Program-made: the position numbers and the translations under genes | Shown here: piece by piece, positions 5,831 to 19,029 of the stretch | Numbering within the stretch: position 1 is the stretch's first letter | How the letters are laid out: each line of letters opens with the position of its first letter | The notes under the pieces: model-generated | Database searches by the model: none | Told to the model about the DNA's origin: nothing | The model's input: only the letters and a program-made list of their open reading frames with translations | Source: a virus | Taxonomy: Duplodnaviria > Caudoviricetes | DNA length: 53,736 bases | Direction: 5' to 3' (one strand) | IMG/VR virus record: IMGVR_UViG_3300045005_000056 | Location: 1 to 53,736 of that record

Positions 5831-5939
5831 TCACGCGCCGCATCTTTTTCGTTGACCCCGCGAGCAGCGGCATTCGGCGCTCGTATCTTCACTACTGCCC
5901 GACGTGCGCGGTGGCGTTCCGCAAGGCGCGCCGCAAGCC

Positions 5940-7334
5940 ATGACGCTTCCGGCATGGAGGCCGAACGTCGGGCCGCAACTTCGGTTCCTCTCGACGAACG
6001 CGTTCGAGGTGCTGTTCGGCGGCGCGGCCGGAGGCGGGAAGTCGGACGCGTTGATCGCAGGCGCTGCGCGATTCGTCGATCGCAAGCACTACAAGGCGCT
6101 GCTCTTGCGGCGCACCGTGCCAGAGCTCGAAGGCGCCGACGGGCTCGTCGAGCGGTCGATGGAATTCTACGCTCCACTCGGCGGCATCTACAACTCGACG
6201 CGCAAGACATGGCGCTTTCCGAGCGGCGCGCGCATCGACTTCCGCAGCTGCGAGCACGAGCGCGACGTGCGCGCGTTCAGCGGGTGGCAGTTGCAATACC
6301 TAGGCTTCGACGAGCTGACGACGTTCACCGAGGGAATCTACACGTTCCTGCTATCGCGCCTACGCTCGACCAAGGGAATCCCTTGCTTCGTGCGCTCAAC
6401 GTCGAACCCCGGCGGCGAGGGGCATGACTGGGTGTTGCGCCGCTGGCGCTGGTGGCTCTATCGCGAAGGCGTGCGCGTCGACGAGTTCGAAGGACCGTAT
6501 GCGCGACCGGGCGAGACGCTGCTCGTTCGCCGCGACTCGGAGAGCGGGCGCGACGAGCTTGTCCTCGACCCGATCCTCGGCGCCCAGACCAGGACATTCA
6601 TCCCCGCGCGCCTCGCCGACAACCCCGCGCTCGCAGCGACCGACTACGGCGATCGGCTGAAGCAACTCGACCCGCTCACGCGCCGGCAGCTCGAGGAAGG
6701 CGACTGGATGGCGCGCGCCGAGCCGGGCATGTTCTTCCGGCGCGCCGACTTCCGCACGTTGCCTGTTGCGCCAGTGAAGCCAGCCGTCAGCGCGCGCGTT
6801 CGCTATTGGGACCGAGCGGCGACCGAGGCGCGTCCAGGCGCTGACCCCGATTGGACGGTGGGCGTGCTGATGTCGCGCACTGTCGACGGGCTCTTCGTCA
6901 TCGAGCACGTCATCCGCGCGCGCGAAGAGCCAGCCGGCGTCTATCGGCTTATCAAGTCGACTGCGGCTGCCGACCACGCCGCAGACGCCGATACGTGGCA
7001 GGTGCTCGAACAAGAGCCGGGCTCAAGCGGCAAGGCTGACGCGCAAGCGATTGCGCGCGAGCTCGCCGGCTGCAACGTGCGGATCGTCGCGCCCAGCGGC
7101 GACAAGGTGACGCGCGCAAAACCGCTGAGCGCGCAAGCCGCGGTCGGCAACTGTGCGATCGTTGGCGCGGTGTGGAACCTGTCTTTCCTAGATGAGCTGG
7201 AAAGCTTTCCGAAGGGCCACGACGACCAGGTCGACGCGGCGAGCGGAGCTTTCAATCAGCTGGCGCCGATGAACGGCATGAAGCCGCGTACGGGAGGCGT
7301 TCGTCCGCTAGCGCGCGCACAAGGCGGCTTCTAA
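5940..7334 (+). CDS. terL: Terminase large subunit
   Basis: Walker A GGAAGGGKS, Walker B LGFDELT, STSNPGG, nuclease YWDRAAT and HDDQVDA. Confidence 0.95.
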   Translation: MTLPAWRPNVGPQLRFLSTNAFEVLFGGAAGGGKSDALIAGAARFVDRKHYKALLLRRTVPELEGADGLVERSMEFYAPLGGIYNSTRKTWRFPSGARIDFRSCEHERDVRAFSGWQLQYLGFDELTTFTEGIYTFLLSRLRSTKGIPCFVRSTSNPGGEGHDWVLRRWRWWLYREGVRVDEFEGPYARPGETLLVRRDSESGRDELVLDPILGAQTRTFIPARLADNPALAATDYGDRLKQLDPLTRRQLEEGDWMARAEPGMFFRRADFRTLPVAPVKPAVSARVRYWDRAATEARPGADPDWTVGVLMSRTVDGLFVIEHVIRAREEPAGVYRLIKSTAAADHAADADTWQVLEQEPGSSGKADAQAIARELAGCNVRIVAPSGDKVTRAKPLSAQAAVGNCAIVGAVWNLSFLDELESFPKGHDDQVDAASGAFNQLAPMNGMKPRTGGVRPLARAQGGF

Positions 7335-7350: not shown

Positions 7351-7644
7351 ATGGCGTTTCACACCGTGATCATGGATGCCCCGGACTCCGTCGCCATAGG
7401 CGCAGGGATCGGCGCTCGCAACCTGCGAGACAAGGCCATCATCATCAGCGGCACGTTCACCGCGACCGTCGTCGTCGAGGCGAGCTTCGACGGCACAACC
7501 TTCGTACGCGTCGGCCAAACGACAGACTTGGCGGCGATCATTCAGGTGCCATTCGCATGCCGCTCGCTGCGGATCAACACGACCGCCTACACCGCCGGCG
7601 CGATCAATGCGAACTTGGTCGCCGACAATCCCCGGACCAGCTGA
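7351..7644 (+). CDS. Small beta-rich protein, probably virion-associated
   Basis: 97 aa between TerL and portal; GTFTATVVVEASFDG motif. Confidence 0.7.
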   Translation: MAFHTVIMDAPDSVAIGAGIGARNLRDKAIIISGTFTATVVVEASFDGTTFVRVGQTTDLAAIIQVPFACRSLRINTTAYTAGAINANLVADNPRTS

Positions 7645-10600
7645 TGGCCTCGAGCGTCATCGACCTAACCGGGCTCGACTCGGCCGCGCTGCGCAAGACG
7701 TTCTTCTCGCAGAAGCTCCCGCGCGCCGAGCAGTACCGCACGTACTTCGGTCGCATGCTCGACCAGGGTCGCATCGAGAACGCGTTGCGGCAAGCCGACC
7801 TCGGTCTGATGGTCGACCTGTGCGACCTCGAAAGCGAAGCGCTGTCACTCGACCCGCATCTCTCGGGCGTGCTGGGCAAACGCATCGGCAGCATCAAGAC
7901 GCTCGACTGGTCGATCGTGCCAGCGAGCGGGCCGGGCATCGACAAGCGACTCGCGGCTGAGATCGCGAACGAGCAGACCAACGCCTATAAGGCGATTCCG
8001 AATTTCATGGAGCGGCTCTACGACCTGGAGTGGGCCATCTACGACGGGCGCGCCGCGCAAGAGATTCACTGGGCGGTCTTCGCCGGTCGCGTCCGGTGGC
8101 GCCCCGTCGCGCTGTCGTGGCTTCATCCGCGCCGGCTGTCCTTCGGCAGCGAGCGCGAGCTGCGCGTCATCGACACCTTCAAGCGAATCGGCAACTTTCA
8201 AGACCTGGGATTCCCGATCCGCGACTACCCCGGAAAGTTCCTATGGTGGCAGCCGCGCATGTGGCGCGAGTATCCCGAGCGCGAAGGCATCGCGCCGCGC
8301 ACGCTCTACTGGACGTTCTTCAAACGCTTCGACTGGCGCATGCGGATGGCGCTGACGGAAATCTTTGGCTTGCCGTGGCGCATCGTCGAAACCGACAAAG
8401 ACGCGCCGATTAACAGCGAGCAACTCGACGCCGCGGAGATCGCGGCCGAGAAGCTCGGACAGGAATCGACGGCGGCGTTCGGCCCCGGGCAGAGCGTGAA
8501 GATCGTCACGGGCGGAGAGCACGGCGGCGACCTGATGAAGATGACGTCGGACGACGTCGACCTGCAGATGTCGAAGCTCGTGCTCGGCCAGACCGGCACG
8601 ACCGACGCGACCGGCAATCGCGCCGAGTCGATCGTGATGAAGAGCGAGCAAGACATCCTCTTGCAAAGCGACGCCGCTGGCATCAGCTGTCGAATACATC
8701 ACCAGCTCGACATACCGTTCGTCGCGCTGAACTGGGGCGAAAGCGCGCTCGACCACGCTGGGACATTCACGCTGAATGCGCAGCCGCAGCGCGACCGCAA
8801 GACCGAGTTGGAGCGCGTCGAGAAGGTGTTGAGCTTCGGCGTGCCCGTGCCGCTCGTCGAGGTGCGCGAGATAGCCGGCTTCCGCGCGCCCGAGCCGGAC
8901 GAACCCTATCTCGTCAGCAAGCCCGGCGGAACGGATGCGCTCGGCAACCCATTGCCGCAGAGCGTGTCGATCGTCGATCCGGAGGCTGGCGAGCTCGAAG
9001 CGGAAGGACTCGACGGTCAAGCCGACCGCGCCGCCGAAGAGTTAGCCGCGCTCGCACGCATGCCGCTCGTGCTCGAACACTACGGCCGAGCGCGCGCAGC
9101 ACACGACAAGATCATCGAGGCGTCCGGCATCACGCTGCCGTTCGGCAAGTGGGAGGACTTCGACTCATGCGTCGCCGATCATGTGAGCCGCGGTCATAGC
9201 GAAGACTCCGCGCGCCGAATTTGCGGCGCTATCCAAGAGAAGGTCGAAGGCATCGTGCGCCGCGCCGAAGAGCTGTCGCGCACCGAGCGCGCATTGCCAA
9301 TGACGCTCGCGGCAGCGCCGCCAATGCGCGCGCCCGGCAGCATCCACGGTGCGCCATCAGCGATCTTGGAGCGCGAGCTCGGCGCAGCCGAAGAAGCGAT
9401 ACGCAAGCTCGCCGACCGATTCGTCGACGCCGTGCCTACCGGCGAATCGAGCGCACCACGCATCCGCCGCGCAATCGATCGCGCGTTCGACAAGCTGCCG
9501 CTCGACGAGCTGGTCGACTCGCTCGAACGAACGGTCATGCGATCAGCGATGCTCGGCGCGCTCGATAGCGAATGGGAGGCGCGCGCAGACGACGAAGACG
9601 AGAAGGACAAGGCGATCGCGCCCGCGACATACTCGCGCGTCGAGCGCCGCTTCACACTCGCCGTTGATCCGCTGATCGACAGCTTCGTCACGAAGCCGTT
9701 CTCGGCTGCGGTCGACACTTTCATCGAGAAGAAGATCGTGACCCCGGACGTGTTCGAGCGCCTGTCGGCAGCGGCACGTCGGCGAGCGTTTACCGTCGCC
9801 GGCATGACGTCGCAGTCGATGCTCGAACAGGTCCACTTCGAGCTGGCGAAGTCGATCGGCACCGGCGGCGACCTACGCGACTTCCGCGCGACGCTGAGCG
9901 AGCGCTTGCGCGACAGCGGGTGGCTGCGGCCCGGCCCGCGTGAGGAAGCGCCGACACGCACCGGCTCGCCGTGGCATGTCGAGACGATCTTCCGAAACGC
10001 GACAGCCGGCTCCTACGCAAGCGGTCGTGATGCGCACATGCGACAGCCGGCAGTGATCGCGAAGCGGCCTTACTGGCAAGTGCTCACCGTGTCGGACGAT
10101 CGCCGACGACCCACGCACGGGCGAGCGCACGGCAAGGTGTTGCGGCACGACGATCCGTTCTGGACGCGGGCGCCGCTTCCGTGGGGTCACAACTGCTTCC
10201 TGCCAACCGAACGAATCGAAGGCAGGATCATCGGCGCGTCACGCGCGCTCTACTCGGGGAAGGCCATCGAGATAACGACGCGCAAAGGTCGTCGACTTTC
10301 CGTCACGGCCAAGCACCCCGTATTGACCGCGCAAGGGTTCGCCATTGCGCAATCGCTCCGCGAAGGCATGCAGCTCGTCTGCGATGCCTTCGAGTCCAGG
10401 GGTTCGTCGCTGCGGCTTGGTGCGCAGCACAACGAATACCAACAGCCAACCGTCGCGCAAGATGTATTCGGTGCGTTCGTGAAGTCGGAGCCAATTGCGT
10501 CGACCCAACCCGGTAGCGACGACTTCCACGGCGAGGCGGAGTGCTTTCACGGACACGTCGAGATTGTAGGGTCCTACCGGCAGCTGTTGTTGAACGACGT

Positions 10601-11141
10601 GGCCGCGCGCGCGCAGCAAGCAGGCGACCTCATCCTCGAAGACGCCACGTTTGGTCATCCGCTCGTAGTTGGTGCGAGCAGCACGAAGCCGCTCGTCGAG
10701 CGACTTCACGCGGCCTCGAGCGGCAACCCAAGCGGCTCCGCACTGGCGCTCGACGCGACCACGATCAAGGCGCAGCGCGGACCACTTCACGTGCTCCGCC
10801 TCGGAGCGGCCGCGCAGATGAACGCCGTGTGCGCGGAGACGATCGGTCATGGTTGGTCGCGAGACGTCGAGTTCATCCGCGAGCTGTTTGATCGAGATGC
10901 CGGCCTCGTATCGCTGGACGAGATCGTCGATGTTCGGGAGTTCGATTTTCTTGGGCATGTGTTCGACTTTGAGTCGGAAACCGGCCTCATTGTCGCATCC
11001 GGCATCGTGACGAGCAACTGTCGGTGCAGAAAAGTTAGCCGTTCCGACCGAGACGTCGAGCGGCTCGGCCTCACCATCAGTGATGGCTCAAGCTTGACGG
11101 GCCTACCTGATCCGGGATGGGATGGCGGCGCGCTCGGTTGA
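7644..11141 (+). CDS. Mu gp29-like (DUF935) portal fused to MuF/gp30-like minor head protein, containing an intein
   Basis: N-half DPHL.GVL.KR, EIFGLP, MSKLVLGQT.T (portal); C-half RAFTVAG, VETIFRN, D.RRRPTH...HGKVL..DDPFW...PLPWGHN/CRC (MuF); no stop between. Confidence 0.88.
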   Translation: MASSVIDLTGLDSAALRKTFFSQKLPRAEQYRTYFGRMLDQGRIENALRQADLGLMVDLCDLESEALSLDPHLSGVLGKRIGSIKTLDWSIVPASGPGIDKRLAAEIANEQTNAYKAIPNFMERLYDLEWAIYDGRAAQEIHWAVFAGRVRWRPVALSWLHPRRLSFGSERELRVIDTFKRIGNFQDLGFPIRDYPGKFLWWQPRMWREYPEREGIAPRTLYWTFFKRFDWRMRMALTEIFGLPWRIVETDKDAPINSEQLDAAEIAAEKLGQESTAAFGPGQSVKIVTGGEHGGDLMKMTSDDVDLQMSKLVLGQTGTTDATGNRAESIVMKSEQDILLQSDAAGISCRIHHQLDIPFVALNWGESALDHAGTFTLNAQPQRDRKTELERVEKVLSFGVPVPLVEVREIAGFRAPEPDEPYLVSKPGGTDALGNPLPQSVSIVDPEAGELEAEGLDGQADRAAEELAALARMPLVLEHYGRARAAHDKIIEASGITLPFGKWEDFDSCVADHVSRGHSEDSARRICGAIQEKVEGIVRRAEELSRTERALPMTLAAAPPMRAPGSIHGAPSAILERELGAAEEAIRKLADRFVDAVPTGESSAPRIRRAIDRAFDKLPLDELVDSLERTVMRSAMLGALDSEWEARADDEDEKDKAIAPATYSRVERRFTLAVDPLIDSFVTKPFSAAVDTFIEKKIVTPDVFERLSAAARRRAFTVAGMTSQSMLEQVHFELAKSIGTGGDLRDFRATLSERLRDSGWLRPGPREEAPTRTGSPWHVETIFRNATAGSYASGRDAHMRQPAVIAKRPYWQVLTVSDDRRRPTHGRAHGKVLRHDDPFWTRAPLPWGHNCFLPTERIEGRIIGASRALYSGKAIEITTRKGRRLSVTAKHPVLTAQGFAIAQSLREGMQLVCDAFESRGSSLRLGAQHNEYQQPTVAQDVFGAFVKSEPIASTQPGSDDFHGEAECFHGHVEIVGSYRQLLLNDVAARAQQAGDLILEDATFGHPLVVGASSTKPLVERLHAASSGNPSGSALALDATTIKAQRGPLHVLRLGAAAQMNAVCAETIGHGWSRDVEFIRELFDRDAGLVSLDEIVDVREFDFLGHVFDFESETGLIVASGIVTSNCRCRKVSRSDRDVERLGLTISDGSSLTGLPDPGWDGGALG
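10194..11018 (+). mobile_element. Intein (275 aa) inserted in the MuF HNCRC motif
   Basis: Starts CFLPTERI (block A); LSVTAKHPVLT (block B TxxH); ends GHVFDFESETGLIVASGIVTSN followed by Cys+1; excision restores WGHN-CRC. Confidence 0.92.
10239..10958 (-). CDS. HTH + DUF559/Vsr-like PD-(D/E)XK endonuclease encoded antisense inside the intein
   Basis: YEAGISIKQLADELDVSRPTMTDRLRAHGV (HTH); FEDEVACLLRARG...QQQLPVGPYNLDV....LAVEV...RTEYILRDGWLLVFV (DUF559-like). Confidence 0.8.
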   Translation of the reverse strand: MPKKIELPNIDDLVQRYEAGISIKQLADELDVSRPTMTDRLRAHGVHLRGRSEAEHVKWSALRLDRGRVERQCGAAWVAARGRVKSLDERLRAARTNYERMTKRGVFEDEVACLLRARGHVVQQQLPVGPYNLDVSVKALRLAVEVVATGLGRRNWLRLHERTEYILRDGWLLVFVVLRTKPQRRTPGLEGIADELHAFAERLRNGEPLRGQYGVLGRDGKSTTFARRYLDGLPRVERA

Positions 11142-11174
11142 CGAGTAACATCCGAGCGAAGGAGCACAAGCCGC

Positions 11175-11468
11175 ATGCCACTGCCATCGATCGCCCATTC
11201 GTCAACGTCGGGTCAACGCCAATCGCTTCGAGGTCTTGCCGGCGCGTTTCAGTCCGGCATTGCCACGCTCGCCGGCGGCACGATCACGGTTACCGGCGTG
11301 CGGCTCACAACTTCGAGTCGCATCATGTTCGGTCGCAACACGCCCGGCGGCATGCTCGGCGAGTTGAGCGCGCCGGCAGCTTCGCGCAATGCTGGCGCCG
11401 GCTCGTTCGTGATCAACAGCGCGAACGCCGGCGACACGAGCACGGTCGACTGGCTCATCGTGGGCTGA
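11175..11468 (+). CDS. Small virion/decoration-like protein
   Basis: AAGGAG SD; GIATLAGGTITV...SFVINS....DTSTVDWLI beta domain. Confidence 0.75.
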   Translation: MPLPSIAHSSTSGQRQSLRGLAGAFQSGIATLAGGTITVTGVRLTTSSRIMFGRNTPGGMLGELSAPAASRNAGAGSFVINSANAGDTSTVDWLIVG

Positions 11469-11470
11469 CG

Positions 11471-12838
11471 ATGGGCACCGCCTTCTCGCAACAGACCATT
11501 CGTCTCGCCGGCATCAAGCTCGGCGTCGAAAGCGCGACCGACGCGCCGACGTGGATTCAAGTCGCCGAAGAGGGACGCTTCGACGGACACCCTGCCGGAC
11601 CTTTCGAGTTCAATGCGGATGTCTTCGACAAGCTCATCGAGAACTTCCGCAAGCATCCGGCGTACGGCGTAGGCGCAGACGGGCGCGGCAATCAACGCGT
11701 CATCGCGTTCGATTTCCACCACGCGAGCGAGAGCGAGCCGACGTCTGTCGCCGTGATGGGCGCGCCGGCCGCAGCATGGGCGCTAGAGCTGGAGAAGCGG
11801 CAAGGCGCCGACGGCAAATGGCAGTTGTGGGCGCTGACCGACTACCTCGAACCAGCGCGCACGTACATCCGCGAGGGAAAGTATCGCTGGACGTCCGTGG
11901 CCGTTTGGCCCGACGCTGTCGATCCGAAGACAGGCCAGTCAATTGGCTGGTATATGTCCAGCATCGCCTTCACGAACGACCCGTTTATTCAGGGCATGTG
12001 CCCGATCGCAGCAAACCGAACATCCGCCGCACAGCCGGCGACAAAGGAAAACGACATGGGTGCAGACGAGAAGAAGATTCACAAGCTCGTCGTGCTTCTC
12101 GCCGGCCGGTTCGGGATTCCGGCGGATGACGAAGCCGTCGAAAAACGATTGCTCGCCGAGATGGCGGGCGCTGATCAAGCGGTCGCGACGCTCAAAGCGA
12201 TCTTGGGCGCGATCGGCGTGCAAGACGCCGAAGCCGCAGTGAAGCGCGTCGCCGACATGATGCGCGCATCGAAGCAGCTCGAAGAAGCGATGCCGCAGCT
12301 CGCAGCGCTCGCCGAGATGCAGGTCGGCGAGGAAGAGAAGAAAGCCGAAGAGGAAGTGCAGGCGGCGATGCAAGCGCATCGCATGCCCGACGTCGCGAAA
12401 GCAGCGCTCCTGCACTTGCGTCGTGGCGGCGTCGCCCTCGACCACAAGCTCGCGGCGAGCAACCCCGAAGCGTTCCGCTCGGCGTGGCAAGCGCGGCAGA
12501 AGGCACGCGAGACGTTCGCGAAAGAGTATCCGACGATCGACGCGAGCAAGGTCTACTTGACGCGCTCGCTCGCGACGACACCCGATGACGGCGTCGTGTC
12601 GCCAGTGTTGCGGTCGATTCGCGGCGGCGCCGATGGCGGCGTGTCGCTGTCTCGCGAGAGCAAGCCGGGCGCAGCGAAGACCAGCGCGATCACCGAGCTC
12701 GACCAGTACGCTGGCCGAAACACCATCGAGAAAGCCATGTCGTTCATCCGCGCCGAGCGCGGCGGTGACCGCATGAGCCTCGAACAGCTGCACGAACAAG
12801 CTTGCAAGCTCGTGCGCGGCATGAAGACCGCCGGCTGA
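11471..12838 (+). CDS. Mu gpI-like prohead protease with C-terminal scaffold
   Basis: WIQVA..G.F.GH..GPF, FDFHH, AAAW, YRWTS, AFTNDPF; helical C-terminal half. Confidence 0.85.
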   Translation: MGTAFSQQTIRLAGIKLGVESATDAPTWIQVAEEGRFDGHPAGPFEFNADVFDKLIENFRKHPAYGVGADGRGNQRVIAFDFHHASESEPTSVAVMGAPAAAWALELEKRQGADGKWQLWALTDYLEPARTYIREGKYRWTSVAVWPDAVDPKTGQSIGWYMSSIAFTNDPFIQGMCPIAANRTSAAQPATKENDMGADEKKIHKLVVLLAGRFGIPADDEAVEKRLLAEMAGADQAVATLKAILGAIGVQDAEAAVKRVADMMRASKQLEEAMPQLAALAEMQVGEEEKKAEEEVQAAMQAHRMPDVAKAALLHLRRGGVALDHKLAASNPEAFRSAWQARQKARETFAKEYPTIDASKVYLTRSLATTPDDGVVSPVLRSIRGGADGGVSLSRESKPGAAKTSAITELDQYAGRNTIEKAMSFIRAERGGDRMSLEQLHEQACKLVRGMKTAG

Positions 12839-12879: not shown

Positions 12880-13275
12880 ATGCCAGGCGAACCGATTGCA
12901 ATCAGCTCCGAGTCACCGCTTCGGAGCAAGCGAAACAGCACGGGCGCGACGCTCATCCGCGGACGAGCAGTCATGCCCGCGGCGACCGAAGACGACGTGC
13001 AGCTGCCCACCGCCTCGACGGATCTGCTGATGGGTGTCGTGAAGGATGGCGACATCCTGAATGGTGCATTCGGCACCATTCAGATCCGCGGCGTGGCGCT
13101 CTGCCGAGCCGCCGGCGCGCTCGCAACGCCGGGCATCGCCGTGATGGCCAACGCTGCCGGTCGCGTGGTAGCACACGCGAACGGGAACGCCCTGCTCGGC
13201 TTCCTGCTCAACACCGCAACCGCGCTCGACGATCTTGTCGAAGTCGAGTTGGCCGGACCAGGAAGCTTCCGCTGA
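12880..13275 (+). CDS. Capsid cement/decoration protein (DUF2190-like)
   Basis: 131 aa, Gly/Ala-rich, ends ALDDLVEVEL; between protease and capsid. Confidence 0.75.
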   Translation: MPGEPIAISSESPLRSKRNSTGATLIRGRAVMPAATEDDVQLPTASTDLLMGVVKDGDILNGAFGTIQIRGVALCRAAGALATPGIAVMANAAGRVVAHANGNALLGFLLNTATALDDLVEVELAGPGSFR

Positions 13276-13285
13276 TCGAGGAGGA

Positions 13286-14341
13286 ATGAAAATGGAACAG
13301 CTTCAAGTCAAGCTCGCAGAAAACAGCCCCCTCGGTCGGCAGGGTCAGCTCGTGACGTTGTCGCTCACGCCAACGGACGTGAACATCCCGGAGGAGTTGC
13401 CGAGCTACCTCGCCGGCTACAAGCCAAACGGCTTCCGCGCCGACGAGGTGTCGAACGTCGTGCTCGTCGACAAGGACTCCGGGTTCCGCCGCGACTTCTC
13501 GTCGAACGATGCGTTTCGGCGCGTCGACGTGAAGGGCTCGATCGACGGCGCAATCCCCGAGGTCGATCCGCAGAGCGCGACGACTCAATACACAGTCGTC
13601 GACCGCTTCATCGGATCGTTCATCAACGACATCACGCAGGGCAACGCCGTCTACGACGTGCAGCAACGCGCGATGCGGCGATGCTCATGGGCCGTGGCGC
13701 TCGATCGCGAGATCGACGTCTGGACGCTCATGACGACGCTCGGCAACTGGGCAGCGGCGAATCGCGTCACGCTGGGCGCGAGCTTCCAGTGGGGCGGGCC
13801 TTCCGGTGCCGGCGCGAACAGCGATCCGATCGCCGACCTGCACGCGCGCATCGAAGCGAGCTTGCAGGAGGTTACCGATATCTGGATGAACCAGGCTGTC
13901 GCCAACGCGTTCTTGCGACACCCGCTCGTGCGCGACCACATGCGGCAGATGAACGGCGACCAAGCAGCCGACGCTGCCGTCGGCATGGTGAAGGAGGCGA
14001 GCTCGAAGAACGTCGACTTCAAGATCATTGGTTTGCCGCCGATCCACGTGTCGGCCGCGAAGGTCCGCAATGAGGCGACTGCCGCGCATGACTACGTTCT
14101 GAACGATACGTGCGTGCTCGTCACGGTGCCGCCAGGCGGCGCGCCTCGCGACGGAGAAGAGATCGCGACGACCTACACGTTCCGCCGGCGCGGCGGCGCT
14201 GGCGTCGGCTTCGAGACGCGCGAATACCGCGTCGATAACCGCGGCCCGAAAGGCGGCACGATGGTCGTCGTGTCGATGGCCGACATCGCACAGATGGTCG
14301 CGAACAACGTCGGCGGCGCGATCTTCGACGTGCTCCAGTGA
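13286..14341 (+). CDS. Major capsid protein
   Basis: Strong GAGGAGG SD, ~350 aa, position, W.....SDPIADL motif. Confidence 0.85.
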   Translation: MKMEQLQVKLAENSPLGRQGQLVTLSLTPTDVNIPEELPSYLAGYKPNGFRADEVSNVVLVDKDSGFRRDFSSNDAFRRVDVKGSIDGAIPEVDPQSATTQYTVVDRFIGSFINDITQGNAVYDVQQRAMRRCSWAVALDREIDVWTLMTTLGNWAAANRVTLGASFQWGGPSGAGANSDPIADLHARIEASLQEVTDIWMNQAVANAFLRHPLVRDHMRQMNGDQAADAAVGMVKEASSKNVDFKIIGLPPIHVSAAKVRNEATAAHDYVLNDTCVLVTVPPGGAPRDGEEIATTYTFRRRGGAGVGFETREYRVDNRGPKGGTMVVVSMADIAQMVANNVGGAIFDVLQ

Positions 14342-17508: not shown

Positions 17509-19029
17509 ATGGCACTACCCGTAGCAGTCGCACCGTCGGTCAAGTCACCGGGCCTTGCGCTCGTCGTCAATCTGCGCGCAGGCGCCGCGAGCCCTGGCAC
17601 GACCGGAAAAAAAGCGCTGATCATCGCCGTCCGGTCGGCGGCCGGCACGATCACGCCGAACACGCAGATCGTCGAAGGCGTCGCTGGGGAAGCCGACGTC
17701 GCCACGTTCCTCGGTGCTGGCAGCCCAGGCCACCTTGCAGCGAAGCGGCTGTTCGAGGAGTACGGCATCGCCGCTGTCGACCTCGTTAGTCCTGCCGATC
17801 CCGCAGGCGCTTCCGCCGTCGGCACCATCACATTCGCTGGCGGCCCGCCAACATCCGACCGAACCGCGAACGCGTTCATCTGCGGCCGGCAGATCAGCGT
17901 GATCTGGAAAGCCGGCGAAACCGACACCGCCGGCGCGCTGAAGATGCAGCAAGCGATCGCAGCGCAGACGAACGACCTGCCCGTCACCGCCACCGTGATG
18001 GCCGGCGTGATCACGTTGACATTCAAGACGACCGGAACGATCGGCAACGACGTCCGTCTGCGAACGACCGTAATCGGCGGCGCAGGCGGCACCGTCACGG
18101 CTTCAGGCTCAACGCTCGCCGGCGGCATGGGCGAAGAGAGCTACACGACTGCAATCACGACGATCGTTGGAAAGGAGTACGACATCATCGTTCCGTGCGT
18201 CGGAAACACGGCAGCAACTGTCGCATCGACTACGCAACAAGTCGGCAGCATTCGCTCAGACATCAACACGCGCGCGAGCGGCTTCACGGCGAAGCTCCAG
18301 CAAGCCGTCGTTGGAGTCACCGGCAGCTTGACCGCGGCGAAGGTCGGCACTGACACGCACAACTTCGAGCGTATGCAATACGCTCACTGCCTGAACGGCG
18401 AATCGCTGCCGTGCGAATTCGGCGGCGCCGAAGCCGGCGCTCGTTTGCGCGAAGAAACGAAGGACCCGGCCGCGAACCGGATCGAGCTCGAATACAAGGC
18501 GCAGCTTTTCGGCTCGTCGGACATCTCGGCTGATGAGCCGACCGAAGCCGAGGTCGAGGACGCGCTCACTCACGGCGTGACGATCCTGAAGTACAACGCG
18601 TCCAAACAGCTCATGCCGAGCCGACCGATCACGACGTACTGGAAGGACGCCGCCGGCAACCCCGACGACCGCGTGCTCGACACGTCGCGCGTCACCGGCA
18701 CGGATGCCGTCGCTAAGGATCTGCGCGTCAACCTGCCGCGCGAGTTCAAGGGCGCGAAGCTGTCGAAAGATCTTCTACCCGGCCAAGACGAGCCGCCGGA
18801 AGGGGTCGTGCAAGAGAAGGACGTCAAGGCGTTCGTCGACACGCGCGTCCGCTTCTTCATCTCGCGCGGCGTCGTGCGCGCCGACAAGTATGCCGATGCG
18901 CTCGCGAACGGCACGTTCATCGTCAAGGTCGATCCGACCGACTCGGCGCAGCTCGACATCGTGTTGCCGGTGACCATCTTTCCGCCGCTTGCCAAGATCT
19001 CACTGGTCGTGCAACACAAAGCTGCATGA
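17509..19029 (+). CDS. Contractile tail sheath (Mu gpL-like)
   Basis: 506 aa; GAGSPGHL, DLPVTA, ALTHGVT, RPITTY. Confidence 0.92.
   Translation: MALPVAVAPSVKSPGLALVVNLRAGAASPGTTGKKALIIAVRSAAGTITPNTQIVEGVAGEADVATFLGAGSPGHLAAKRLFEEYGIAAVDLVSPADPAGASAVGTITFAGGPPTSDRTANAFICGRQISVIWKAGETDTAGALKMQQAIAAQTNDLPVTATVMAGVITLTFKTTGTIGNDVRLRTTVIGGAGGTVTASGSTLAGGMGEESYTTAITTIVGKEYDIIVPCVGNTAATVASTTQQVGSIRSDINTRASGFTAKLQQAVVGVTGSLTAAKVGTDTHNFERMQYAHCLNGESLPCEFGGAEAGARLREETKDPAANRIELEYKAQLFGSSDISADEPTEAEVEDALTHGVTILKYNASKQLMPSRPITTYWKDAAGNPDDRVLDTSRVTGTDAVAKDLRVNLPREFKGAKLSKDLLPGQDEPPEGVVQEKDVKAFVDTRVRFFISRGVVRADKYADALANGTFIVKVDPTDSAQLDIVLPVTIFPPLAKISLVVQHKAA

Follow-up and report, generated by a model that had tools for sequence, protein, structure and literature searches.

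The stretch of DNA analyzed here (the window) is the whole of IMG/VR virus record IMGVR_UViG_3300045005_000056, 53,736 nucleotides (53.7 kb, 64% GC) of an uncultivated tailed virus from a lake-water setting, with an estimated completeness of 85%. The stretch or part of it is present in eight DNA runs from lake-water metagenomes, three of which may be its source, and no RNA run is listed with it. Its forward strand carries at 7557-11141 an open reading frame (ORF) of 1194 residues, identified from the ORF list and Pfam as a fusion of a Mu-type portal protein (Portal_Mu, E = 1.5e-53 at residues 94-441) with a MuF (gp30-like) head-morphogenesis protein (Phage_Mu_F, 5.7e-7 at residues 758-880). 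In the MuF part a predicted class-1 intein of 275 residues (10194-11018, forward strand) separates the Asn and the Cys of the motif H-N/C-R-C, and the host ORF would be translated as a precursor that contains this intein. On the reverse strand, nested inside the intein and aligned with its codons, lies a gene of 239 codons plus a TGA stop (10239-10958) for a putative homing endonuclease. An earlier annotation made from the letters alone, hereafter the sequence-only reading, had described both, and we recovered them exactly as described: the intein interrupts HN/CRC with Cys1, TAKH, Asn275 and Cys+1 in place, and the antisense ORF runs in codon register from an ATG opposite His254 to a TGA opposite Ser16.

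The junctions of the insert read ...LPWGHN/CFLPTERIEG...SVTAKHPVL...GHVFDFESETGLIVASGIVTSN/CRCRK, and a nucleophile is present on either side (Cys1 at 10194, Cys+1 at 11019). The N-terminal splicing region (10194-10382, forward strand) comprises Cys1, block B and the sequence up to ...LREGMQLV, where TAKH corresponds to the block B pattern T-x-x-H. The C-terminal splicing region with blocks F and G (10938-11018, forward strand) reads ...LGHVFDFESETGLIVASGIVTSN and closes with ...VFDFESETGLIVASGIVTSN, the terminal Asn being present; it is followed by a C-extein of 40 residues and a stop codon (CRCRKVSRS..., 11019-11141, forward strand). Across 44 intein sequences C1, H41 and N275 are invariant and T38 is at least 90% conserved. 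At the penultimate position, which is variable among the relatives, there is Ser instead of His. When a profile of these 44 sequences (alignment A4) was compared with solved structures it matched inteins at positions 15-70 and 235-273 only; the best intein match was 2jmz (3.1e-10) and more than 20 further inteins were matched, at both ends. Pfam returned Intein_splicing alone for the single sense intein (E = 1.7e-4, under its cut-off) and Phage_Mu_F for the 200 residues preceding it (1e-7). The nucleophiles, block B, blocks F and G and the homology to known inteins point to a class-1 intein, and the conserved residues together with the insertion into the H-N-C-R-C motif of a head-assembly protein suggest that it is removed by protein splicing.

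The middle of the intein (10383-10937, forward strand) is open in the sense frame, holds no recognizable domain and reads as a mirror, or "shadow", translation of the antisense gene. Pfam and the profile search gave no family or PDB match for the sense frame between profile positions of about 70 and 235, in agreement with the statement of the sequence-only reading that this part lacks a recognizable endonuclease. The sense middle is net acidic and the antisense protein net basic, which is suggestive only. GC content by codon position across the host gene was not decisive, and within the intein the first and third positions are about equal.

Read on the sense strand, the antisense ATG is the His254 codon CAT (10956-10958) and the TGA is the Ser16 codon TCA (10239-10241). 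Three parts can be distinguished in the protein, all on the reverse strand: a predicted N-terminal helix-turn-helix (HTH) DNA-binding module (residues 2-54, 10797-10955), a Vsr/DUF559-like PD-(D/E)XK nuclease core (residues 104-199, 10362-10649), and a C-terminal tail (residues 200-239, 10242-10361, ...RGQYGVLGRDGK...) that lies opposite the N-terminal splicing region. Pfam recognized the first of these as HTH_7 (29.2 bits against a cut-off of 23.8, residues 2-36) and also as HTH_58 and HTH_23. Among 63 relatives the scans found REase_MTES_1575 in 43, HTH_58 in 28, DUF559 in 20 and HTH_7 in 18 (E of at most 0.01 for MTES_1575 and DUF559). No NUMOD family was found in the Pfam scans of the window copy or of the 63 relatives, so that the NUMOD3-like linker that had been proposed between the two domains has to be dropped, and an NCBIfam scan added nothing specific. 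Some antisense nucleases of the family are longer, with 290-420 residues and two to four tandem N-terminal HTH / RGxSEAExxKW modules (for example L086:2304-3359, forward strand), which points to a modular lengthening of the predicted DNA-recognition part.

The nuclease core was assigned with the family profile and with Pfam in the relatives. The profile of the 63 antisense sequences (alignment A3) matched the DUF559 endonuclease-like structure 3hrl (1.1e-6, positions 104-199) and, at 0.0076, the homing endonuclease I-Bth0305I (3r3p, positions 107-197). With the HTH_7 match, these results bear out the HTH and DUF559/Vsr-like nuclease that had been read in the antisense frame, and the predicted product can be described as Vsr-like. 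An ESM Atlas model of a homologue with 53% identity has a mean predicted local distance difference test score of 0.77 and a predicted template modelling score of 0.59; the clusters nearest to it in structure are those of viral DUF559 proteins and homing endonucleases. The core columns of the family are E108, Q125, Y131-N132-x-D134, A143-V-E145, R162 and G170-W171; among them E108, Q125, Y131, N132, D134, A143, E145, R162 and W171 are at least 90% conserved across the 63 sequences, and all are present in the window copy. In the profile alignment to 3r3p, E108, D134 and E145 align with E170, D196 and an extra acidic residue of I-Bth0305I.

From this anatomy and the evidence given below, we consider it probable that the locus is a two-gene selfish element, in which the same DNA carries a class-1 intein on the sense strand and, nested within it on the other strand, a homing-nuclease gene. 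The intein would be translated within the late-operon precursor of the portal-MuF head protein and would excise itself by means of Cys1, the Thr and His of block B, Asn275 and Cys+1, rejoining the MuF motif H-N-C-R-C. Its central residues, about 185 of them, would be the mirror translation of the nuclease gene, tolerated as a linker that selection keeps free of stops without conserving its sequence. On the antisense strand the 239-residue protein, starting opposite the His codon that precedes block F and stopping about 15 codons from Cys1, would be transcribed and translated separately, and the nuclease may profit from being expressed apart from the late operon. It would most likely recognize and cut intein-less MuF alleles near N/CRC in mixed infections, and repair from an intein-bearing genome would then copy the whole element into the cut allele, that is, homing.

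To what extent the element moves was assessed with cultured relatives. A tblastn search of 50,697 cultured-phage records found the antisense protein in 47, with at least 80% of it covered in 41. The carriers infect Pseudomonas (15 records), Gordonia (11), Salmonella (5) and Acinetobacter (3), and further carriers are Vibrio, Haemophilus and Aggregatibacter phages and phages of Rhodococcus, Cronobacter and others. Among the matches listed (40 of the 47) the feature annotated at that place is a head morphogenesis protein, a MuF-like minor capsid protein, a similar capsid protein or a "hypothetical protein". The record of Salmonella phage PK2 annotates the antisense ORF, as hypothetical; the Pseudomonas record that we examined does not. 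With the 1860-nucleotide gene of PK2 as query 348 records matched, 58 of them covering at least 80% of it, and 31 of the 40 matches listed consist of two pieces that span 1029-1044 nucleotides of the record, which is the empty site. The difference between PK2 and SETP13 is exactly 272 codons at ...PPAHPN/CRS.... In these Salmonella Jerseyvirus head morphogenesis genes (L082-L084 and L092-L101 among our loci) an intein of 816 nucleotides, of the same family as that of the window, occurs in 58 of the 348 matching records, and most of the remaining ones have the exact empty site HPN/CRS. In two GenBank records, one of them that of NBSal007 (L092), the MuF gene with the intein goes by the name "NAD+--asparagine ADP-ribosyltransferase"; the name seems to have been assigned automatically on account of the MuF domain and mentions neither the intein nor the antisense gene.

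We compared 12 Jerseyvirus genes, six intein-bearing and six intein-less. The inteins proved more similar than the exteins that surround them: 99.0% against 91.8% for PK2 and NBSal007, 96.3% against 87.5% for PK2 and CTH7, 95.1% against 86.2% for PK2 and sidste, and 78-80% against 66-67% for TS6 and the others. Intein-bearing exteins can also be nearest to intein-less ones, as in the pairs L223-Shelanagig (93.4%) and sidste-Ent1 (92.1%). The extein tree needs four changes of state, of which the well-supported branches force only two, and a tree that unites the five close intein-bearing genes in one clade is rejected (approximately unbiased test, p 0.021). Outside this group, IMG/VR locus L043 has an intein identity of 98.1-98.4% against 81.7-82.7% for the N-extein. 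The nucleotide comparison of intein and N-extein over all locus pairs, in which rows with fewer than 500 aligned bases have to be discarded, was otherwise mostly noise because free end gaps gave tiny alignments. The pattern of presence and absence in the Jerseyviruses and the excess conservation of their inteins are as homing predicts and support it indirectly, at the level of the family.

Several observations weigh against the reading of the locus as an intein with its own homing nuclease. The first concern catalysis. The Pfam match of the window copy to REase_MTES_1575 (E = 1.2e-4, residues 107-173) reaches 22.5 bits against a cut-off of 38.2, which leaves the HTH as its only domain above cut-off. 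The antisense family has no conserved counterpart of Vsr H69 or I-Bth0305I H213; there is no conserved His or Asn after E145 (consensus AVEVxxxxxxxxxxxxxxxRxEY), and N208 (H64 of Vsr) is unmatched. The signature of DUF559 is E-x-D-G-x-x-H after the core Asp. Its DG-xx-H is absent from the family, which has AVEV and a variable stretch where 3hrl has VEADGGQH. Because the His and the DG-xx-H are missing family-wide, there is real doubt on the catalytic mechanism and the predicted nuclease activity is not assured. The second concern expression. The Shine-Dalgarno-like site of many relatives is missing from the window copy, which has F-E (TTT GAG) in its place, and a scan of 10100-11600 gave no sigma-70-like promoter on either strand and terminators at chance level only. 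The third concern mobility. The 12 Jerseyvirus genes were picked from the matches listed, their extein tree is poorly resolved, and they belong to relatives about 31% identical in protein to that of the window. No intein-less allele of the window's own phage was found; in contigs of four runs over 9300-11900 no joint skips the intein, and the runs with part of the stretch contain only short identical fragments, which speak neither for nor against such an allele.

The points on catalysis and expression speak for a rival reading, in which the antisense protein is real and not, or no longer, a homing nuclease: it could be a DNA-binding regulator, a maturase-like helper or a catalytically dead relic with another role, with mostly vertical inheritance of the intein. 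In most related pairs the intein identity is indeed close to that of the extein, with L043 and pairs between the L040 and L054 groups (4-9 points) as the clear exceptions. Such a role is retained as a rival because of the doubt on the catalytic mechanism, and we regard it as unlikely: E108, Q125, D134, E145 and R162 are at least 90% conserved, three of them in register with the acidic residues of I-Bth0305I, and the exact presence and absence in the Jerseyviruses and the intein identities in excess of extein identities there and in L043 fit active transfer. The sequence-only reading had noted that the usual E-x-DG-xx-H is AVEV in the window copy, which is correct, and had concluded that this copy may be divergent or inactive. 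We reject the reading as a degenerate copy, since the trait is common to the whole antisense family and the window copy has every residue that is at least 90% conserved.

That the antisense frame might be a chance shadow ORF of a GC-rich gene, opposite a large or degenerate intein without an endonuclease, has the composition of the window in its favour. From the extein codon usage 2.86 antisense stops are expected in the 239 codons, and the probability of finding none is about 0.06. Two further antisense ORFs, of 255-259 residues, lie in the host gene itself, and many of at least 200 residues occur in the window. A MuF intein has moreover been reported without a recognizable endonuclease (Ward et al. 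2004, PMC517821). At 64% GC the length of the ORF is not significant on its own, and the case rests on homology and on the relatives.

We therefore surveyed the family. Eighteen homologues (25-55% identity) were found by word index, three of them named very-short-patch-repair endonuclease by the Joint Genome Institute, and the precomputed domain lists place MTES_1575/DUF559 domains on five of the 18. An exhaustive protein search gave 1713 clusters at E of at most 1e-3, 834 at 1e-10 and 127 at 1e-30, most of about 235 residues and matched over their full length. A scan of IMG/VR with an alignment of 20 homologues (A2) led to at least 599 pattern matches, at least 407 of which encode a relative, and the best 80 were kept as loci. 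In all 80 the opposite, codon-aligned frame is open over the entire match and continues into an ORF of 253-1660 residues. Because the loci were chosen by their antisense protein, an open sense frame is a non-trivial result. Both frames are open also in contigs of 42-49% GC (L024 and L034 at 42%, L041 and L078 at 43%); in most low-GC loci 7-22 stops each are expected from the codon usage of their own extein. Summed over the 80 loci, 297 stops are expected from extein codon usage and none is seen, with 18 of the 80 adding nothing to this figure as they have little or no extein or a zero frequency; related loci are not independent samples, which tempers the comparison. Seven out of seven loci from contigs of bacterial genomes or metagenome-assembled genomes likewise have both frames open and codon-aligned. 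The sequence-only reading had suggested looking for a conserved antisense ORF in homologous MuF inteins, and the outcome of this check is in its favour: both frames are open in 80 of 80 IMG/VR loci and 7 of 7 bacterial-contig loci.

Translation of the sense frame gave the same intein in nearly all loci. Simple patterns set its boundaries in 65 of the 78 loci with enough flank, three of the 65 being mis-set, and the 13 misses are mostly due to extra N-terminal modules that shift the start of the ORF. Of these 65 relatives, 55 have a C-extein that begins with CRC and 49 have Asn immediately before the intein; in 53 the distance from the antisense start to the end of the intein is exactly 20 codons, and in 62 the antisense stop is found 1-20 codons, most often 15, after Cys1. 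The N-extein is Phage_Mu_F in 48 of the 55 scanned. Two loci have other insertion sites. In L018:2-1660 (reverse strand) the intein and the antisense nuclease sit in a RecA-like host (Pfam RecA, 2.6e-6) with a C-extein that begins CKT; L051:3647-5629 (reverse strand) has a MuF host, with the insert upstream of Mu_F profile positions 46-111 and a C-extein that begins CAY. The composite element may have moved to new sites.

To see which strand is under selection in which part, we built a codon alignment of 65 non-redundant loci (below 85% identity, from 78) and calculated the identity per codon position. At the ends of the intein (10962-11021 and 10212-10361) variability is highest at the sense third position, and amino-acid identity is higher in the sense frame (0.34-0.62) than in the antisense frame (0.15-0.41). 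In the middle (about 10542-10901) it is the antisense third position that varies most, and antisense amino-acid identity (0.26-0.58) is about double that of the sense frame (0.14-0.35). The stretch between them, 10362-10541, has a mixed pattern. We then picked 13 pairs of loci and classed the changed codons as synonymous on one strand only. In the middle 462 changes are synonymous on the antisense strand only and 176 on the sense strand only. The ratio is reversed in blocks F and G (14 antisense-only to 91 sense-only), at the N-terminal end beyond the antisense stop (9 to 67) and in the N-terminal splicing region under the antisense tail (58 to 114). These substitution patterns indicate that in the middle it is the antisense strand that codes for protein, the sense frame being no more than kept free of stops, and that the ends are sense-coded. 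The claim that 720 nucleotides code on both strands was consequently too strong: the middle, of about 555 nucleotides, looks constrained at the protein level on the antisense strand only, and the last 140 or so nucleotides of the antisense ORF look constrained mainly on the sense strand.

Taken together these results contradict a chance shadow ORF, which we reject as very improbable. Its frame is open at 42-49% GC, where stops should abound; HTH and nuclease families are matched by the antisense translation and not by the sense one; the middle varies most at antisense third positions, and the Atlas model of the homologue is well folded. Conservation mirrored from the intein cannot account for a DUF559 match in the part that does not take part in splicing. 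Even less probable is a fractured gene, that is, a split intein with a free-standing endonuclease between its halves and an accidental continuity of the sense frame: free-standing Vsr-like endonuclease genes between split-intein halves are known (PMC2677866), but here host gene and intein form one continuous ORF. Its frame joins both exteins without a break in the window, in all 80 IMG/VR loci, for which some 297 stops would be expected and none is seen, and in all seven loci from genome contigs. The core of the sequence-only reading, a contiguous intein with a separate endonuclease gene on the antisense strand, is thus upheld by homology, by the frames open in 80 of 80 and 7 of 7 loci and by the switch of strand.

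The two ends of the antisense gene overlap the splicing regions to different degrees. It had been claimed that the antisense ORF overlaps splicing blocks B and F. This is true of block B; block F is touched at its edge only, by a start codon opposite the His that precedes VFDFES. In the tail the conserved motif GQYGVIGRxG mirrors x-V-T-x-x-H-P-V-L of block B. Over intein codons 21-62 of 47 non-redundant loci, 36.1 antisense stops are expected from the usage of Leu and Ser codons and two are observed, a comparison between related loci to which no probability is attached. That the antisense frame is kept open through block B suggests that the tail is translated and tolerated, and perhaps needed.

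At the other end, a putative translation-initiation region of the antisense gene (10959-10980, reverse strand) lies opposite the block F codons. In 56 of 81 sequences a start codon (45 ATG, 11 GTG) directly follows the mirror of the block F pattern V/I-Y/F-D, and in 29 of these 56 contexts GGAG, GAGG or AGGA is found upstream of it. The Shine-Dalgarno-like GGAGG is the reverse strand of the sense codons for D-L-Q (GAC CTC CAR), 8-9 nucleotides ahead of the start. The Leu codon of D-L-Q is CTC in 31 and CTT in 4 of 35 cases; CTC makes up 27% of the Leu codons in the exteins.

We tentatively suggest, as a serious possibility and less firmly than the two-gene element itself, that the two-strand design is obligate and does not go back to a chance inversion, with codons shared between the strands, an expression window of its own for the nuclease and a family that is common and overlooked. 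Block F codons would double as the Shine-Dalgarno site (D-L-Q giving GGAGG) and start codon (His giving ATG or GTG) of the nuclease, and N-terminal splicing codons including block B would double as its translated tail. With codons shared in this way across strands, intein and nuclease would be inseparable and would evolve jointly, as a single unit.

The architecture is not new, contrary to what the sequence-only reading had implied: it is described in a 2025 preprint by Gosselin, Arsenault and Gogarten (bioRxiv 10.1101/2025.01.02.630785), and antisense LAGLIDADG inteins are older. The main text of that preprint reports 63 non-canonical inteins among 784 in actinobacteriophages, including full inteins with anti-sense VSR-like endonucleases. 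Its authors predict a Vsr-like fold, connect it to 3R3P through HHpred, describe the sense middle as unstructured and see signs that transfer is still going on, and they suggest that such inteins have been overlooked and are still mobile. Minor capsid proteins are among the preprint's four host types of non-canonical endonucleases, where the main text ties only an anti-sense LAGLIDADG cluster by name to those hosts. As in the inteins described there, ours is contiguous and in frame with both exteins, with a Vsr-like ORF antisense inside it, and Gordonia phages of their collection also match the antisense protein of the window. For the sense middle of ours no sequence or profile match was found. 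Differences are seen in the carrier, an uncultivated lake-water Mu-like myovirus in place of an actinophage; in the range of relatives, which extends to phages of Pseudomonas, Salmonella, Cronobacter, Vibrio, Aggregatibacter and Acinetobacter; in the reach of the ORF, which extends from the edge of block F through block B to about 15 codons from Cys1; and in the position of the Vsr core, residues 144-267 in the example given there and 104-199 of 239 in the window protein.

The preprint makes the novelty of our locus modest. What the present analysis adds beyond its main text, and which may overlap its supplements, is the size of the family, its presence in phages of Proteobacteria and on bacterial contigs, the conserved N/CRC site, the hand-over between strands, the reach through block B, the start signals in block F and the Jerseyvirus system. 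Antisense LAGLIDADG endonucleases have been known in inteins since 1998-2002 (Synechocystis DnaX, Chloroflexus SpoVR-like; Gorbalenya 1998 and Gogarten 2002, as cited in the preprint). They share with our locus an endonuclease gene opposite a contiguous intein and differ from it in their fold, which is PD-(D/E)XK/Vsr-like here, and in their hosts.

Dassa et al. (2009, PMC2677866) described fractured genes, mostly of phages, in which a free-standing Vsr-like endonuclease lies between the halves of a split intein. The likeness, a separately translated Vsr-like endonuclease at the endonuclease position of the intein, fits the invasion of an intein by a free-standing endonuclease gene. In their case host gene and intein form two ORFs and splice in trans, whereas the window has a single continuous sense ORF and an antisense endonuclease, so that splicing would be in cis; a search of the text available for that article returned no mention of an antisense arrangement. 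I-Bth0305I (Taylor et al. 2011, PMC3239194; PDB 3R3P) represents the EDxHD family of homing endonucleases and, as presented there, uses E170, the Mg-binding D196 and the His H213 as general base. The antisense protein resembles it in having an N-terminal DNA-binding part and a C-terminal Vsr-like core and in its association with self-splicing elements in phage genes. It differs from it in lacking conserved equivalents of H213 and N208 and in having HTH modules where I-Bth0305I has NUMODs; the profile match to I-Bth0305I is also weak (E = 0.0076), those to DUF559 (3hrl) and Pfam MTES_1575 being better.

The nearest precedent for the host protein is the genome of Methylococcus capsulatus Bath, where Ward et al. 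(2004, PMC517821) reported an intein in protein F (gp30) of a Mu-like prophage, the same protein of the same kind of phage as in the window; their account describes it as lacking a recognizable endonuclease and as perhaps immobile. By analogy this intein may be of the antisense-nuclease kind, and an antisense nuclease would explain that description. In the open-access texts covered by our literature search on inteins with MuF or head morphogenesis, or with opposite-strand overlap, no other description was found.

The host gene belongs to a late operon on the forward strand that includes the terminase large subunit (5904-7334), the head protease (11117-12838), the major head protein (13235-14341) and the tail sheath (17509-19029). 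In Mu, the portal and MuF proteins are encoded by two adjacent genes. In the window the Mu gp29-like portal and the gp30-like MuF form the single fused ORF at 7557-11141, and host ORFs of 1000-1660 residues occur also in several relatives. The listed ORF of the head maturation protease overlaps the 3' end of the portal-MuF ORF by 25 nucleotides. It is matched by PHROG only from residue 139 onwards, and the true start of the protease may therefore be further downstream.

If the two-strand view is right, the family would be among the commonest of phage inteins, present at hundreds of IMG/VR loci and in many cultured phages of Proteobacteria and Actinobacteria, and overlooked there or filed as "endonuclease-less". 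For annotation, the antisense ORF is a real gene that one-strand gene calling misses. A Vsr-like nuclease that lacks the usual His may be of interest in enzymology and to those who develop molecular tools, and the intein-bearing and intein-less Jerseyviruses make homing by an antisense nuclease directly testable in cultured phages. The loci also provide a natural example of genes that overlap on opposite strands, in which the passage of selective constraint from one strand to the other can be measured. Antisense placement within the late operon would, if it holds, give the nuclease an expression window of its own. With the nuclease read from the other strand, inteins filed as endonuclease-less or degenerate may be mobile, and phage genomes would have to be scored differently for the mobility and decay of their inteins.

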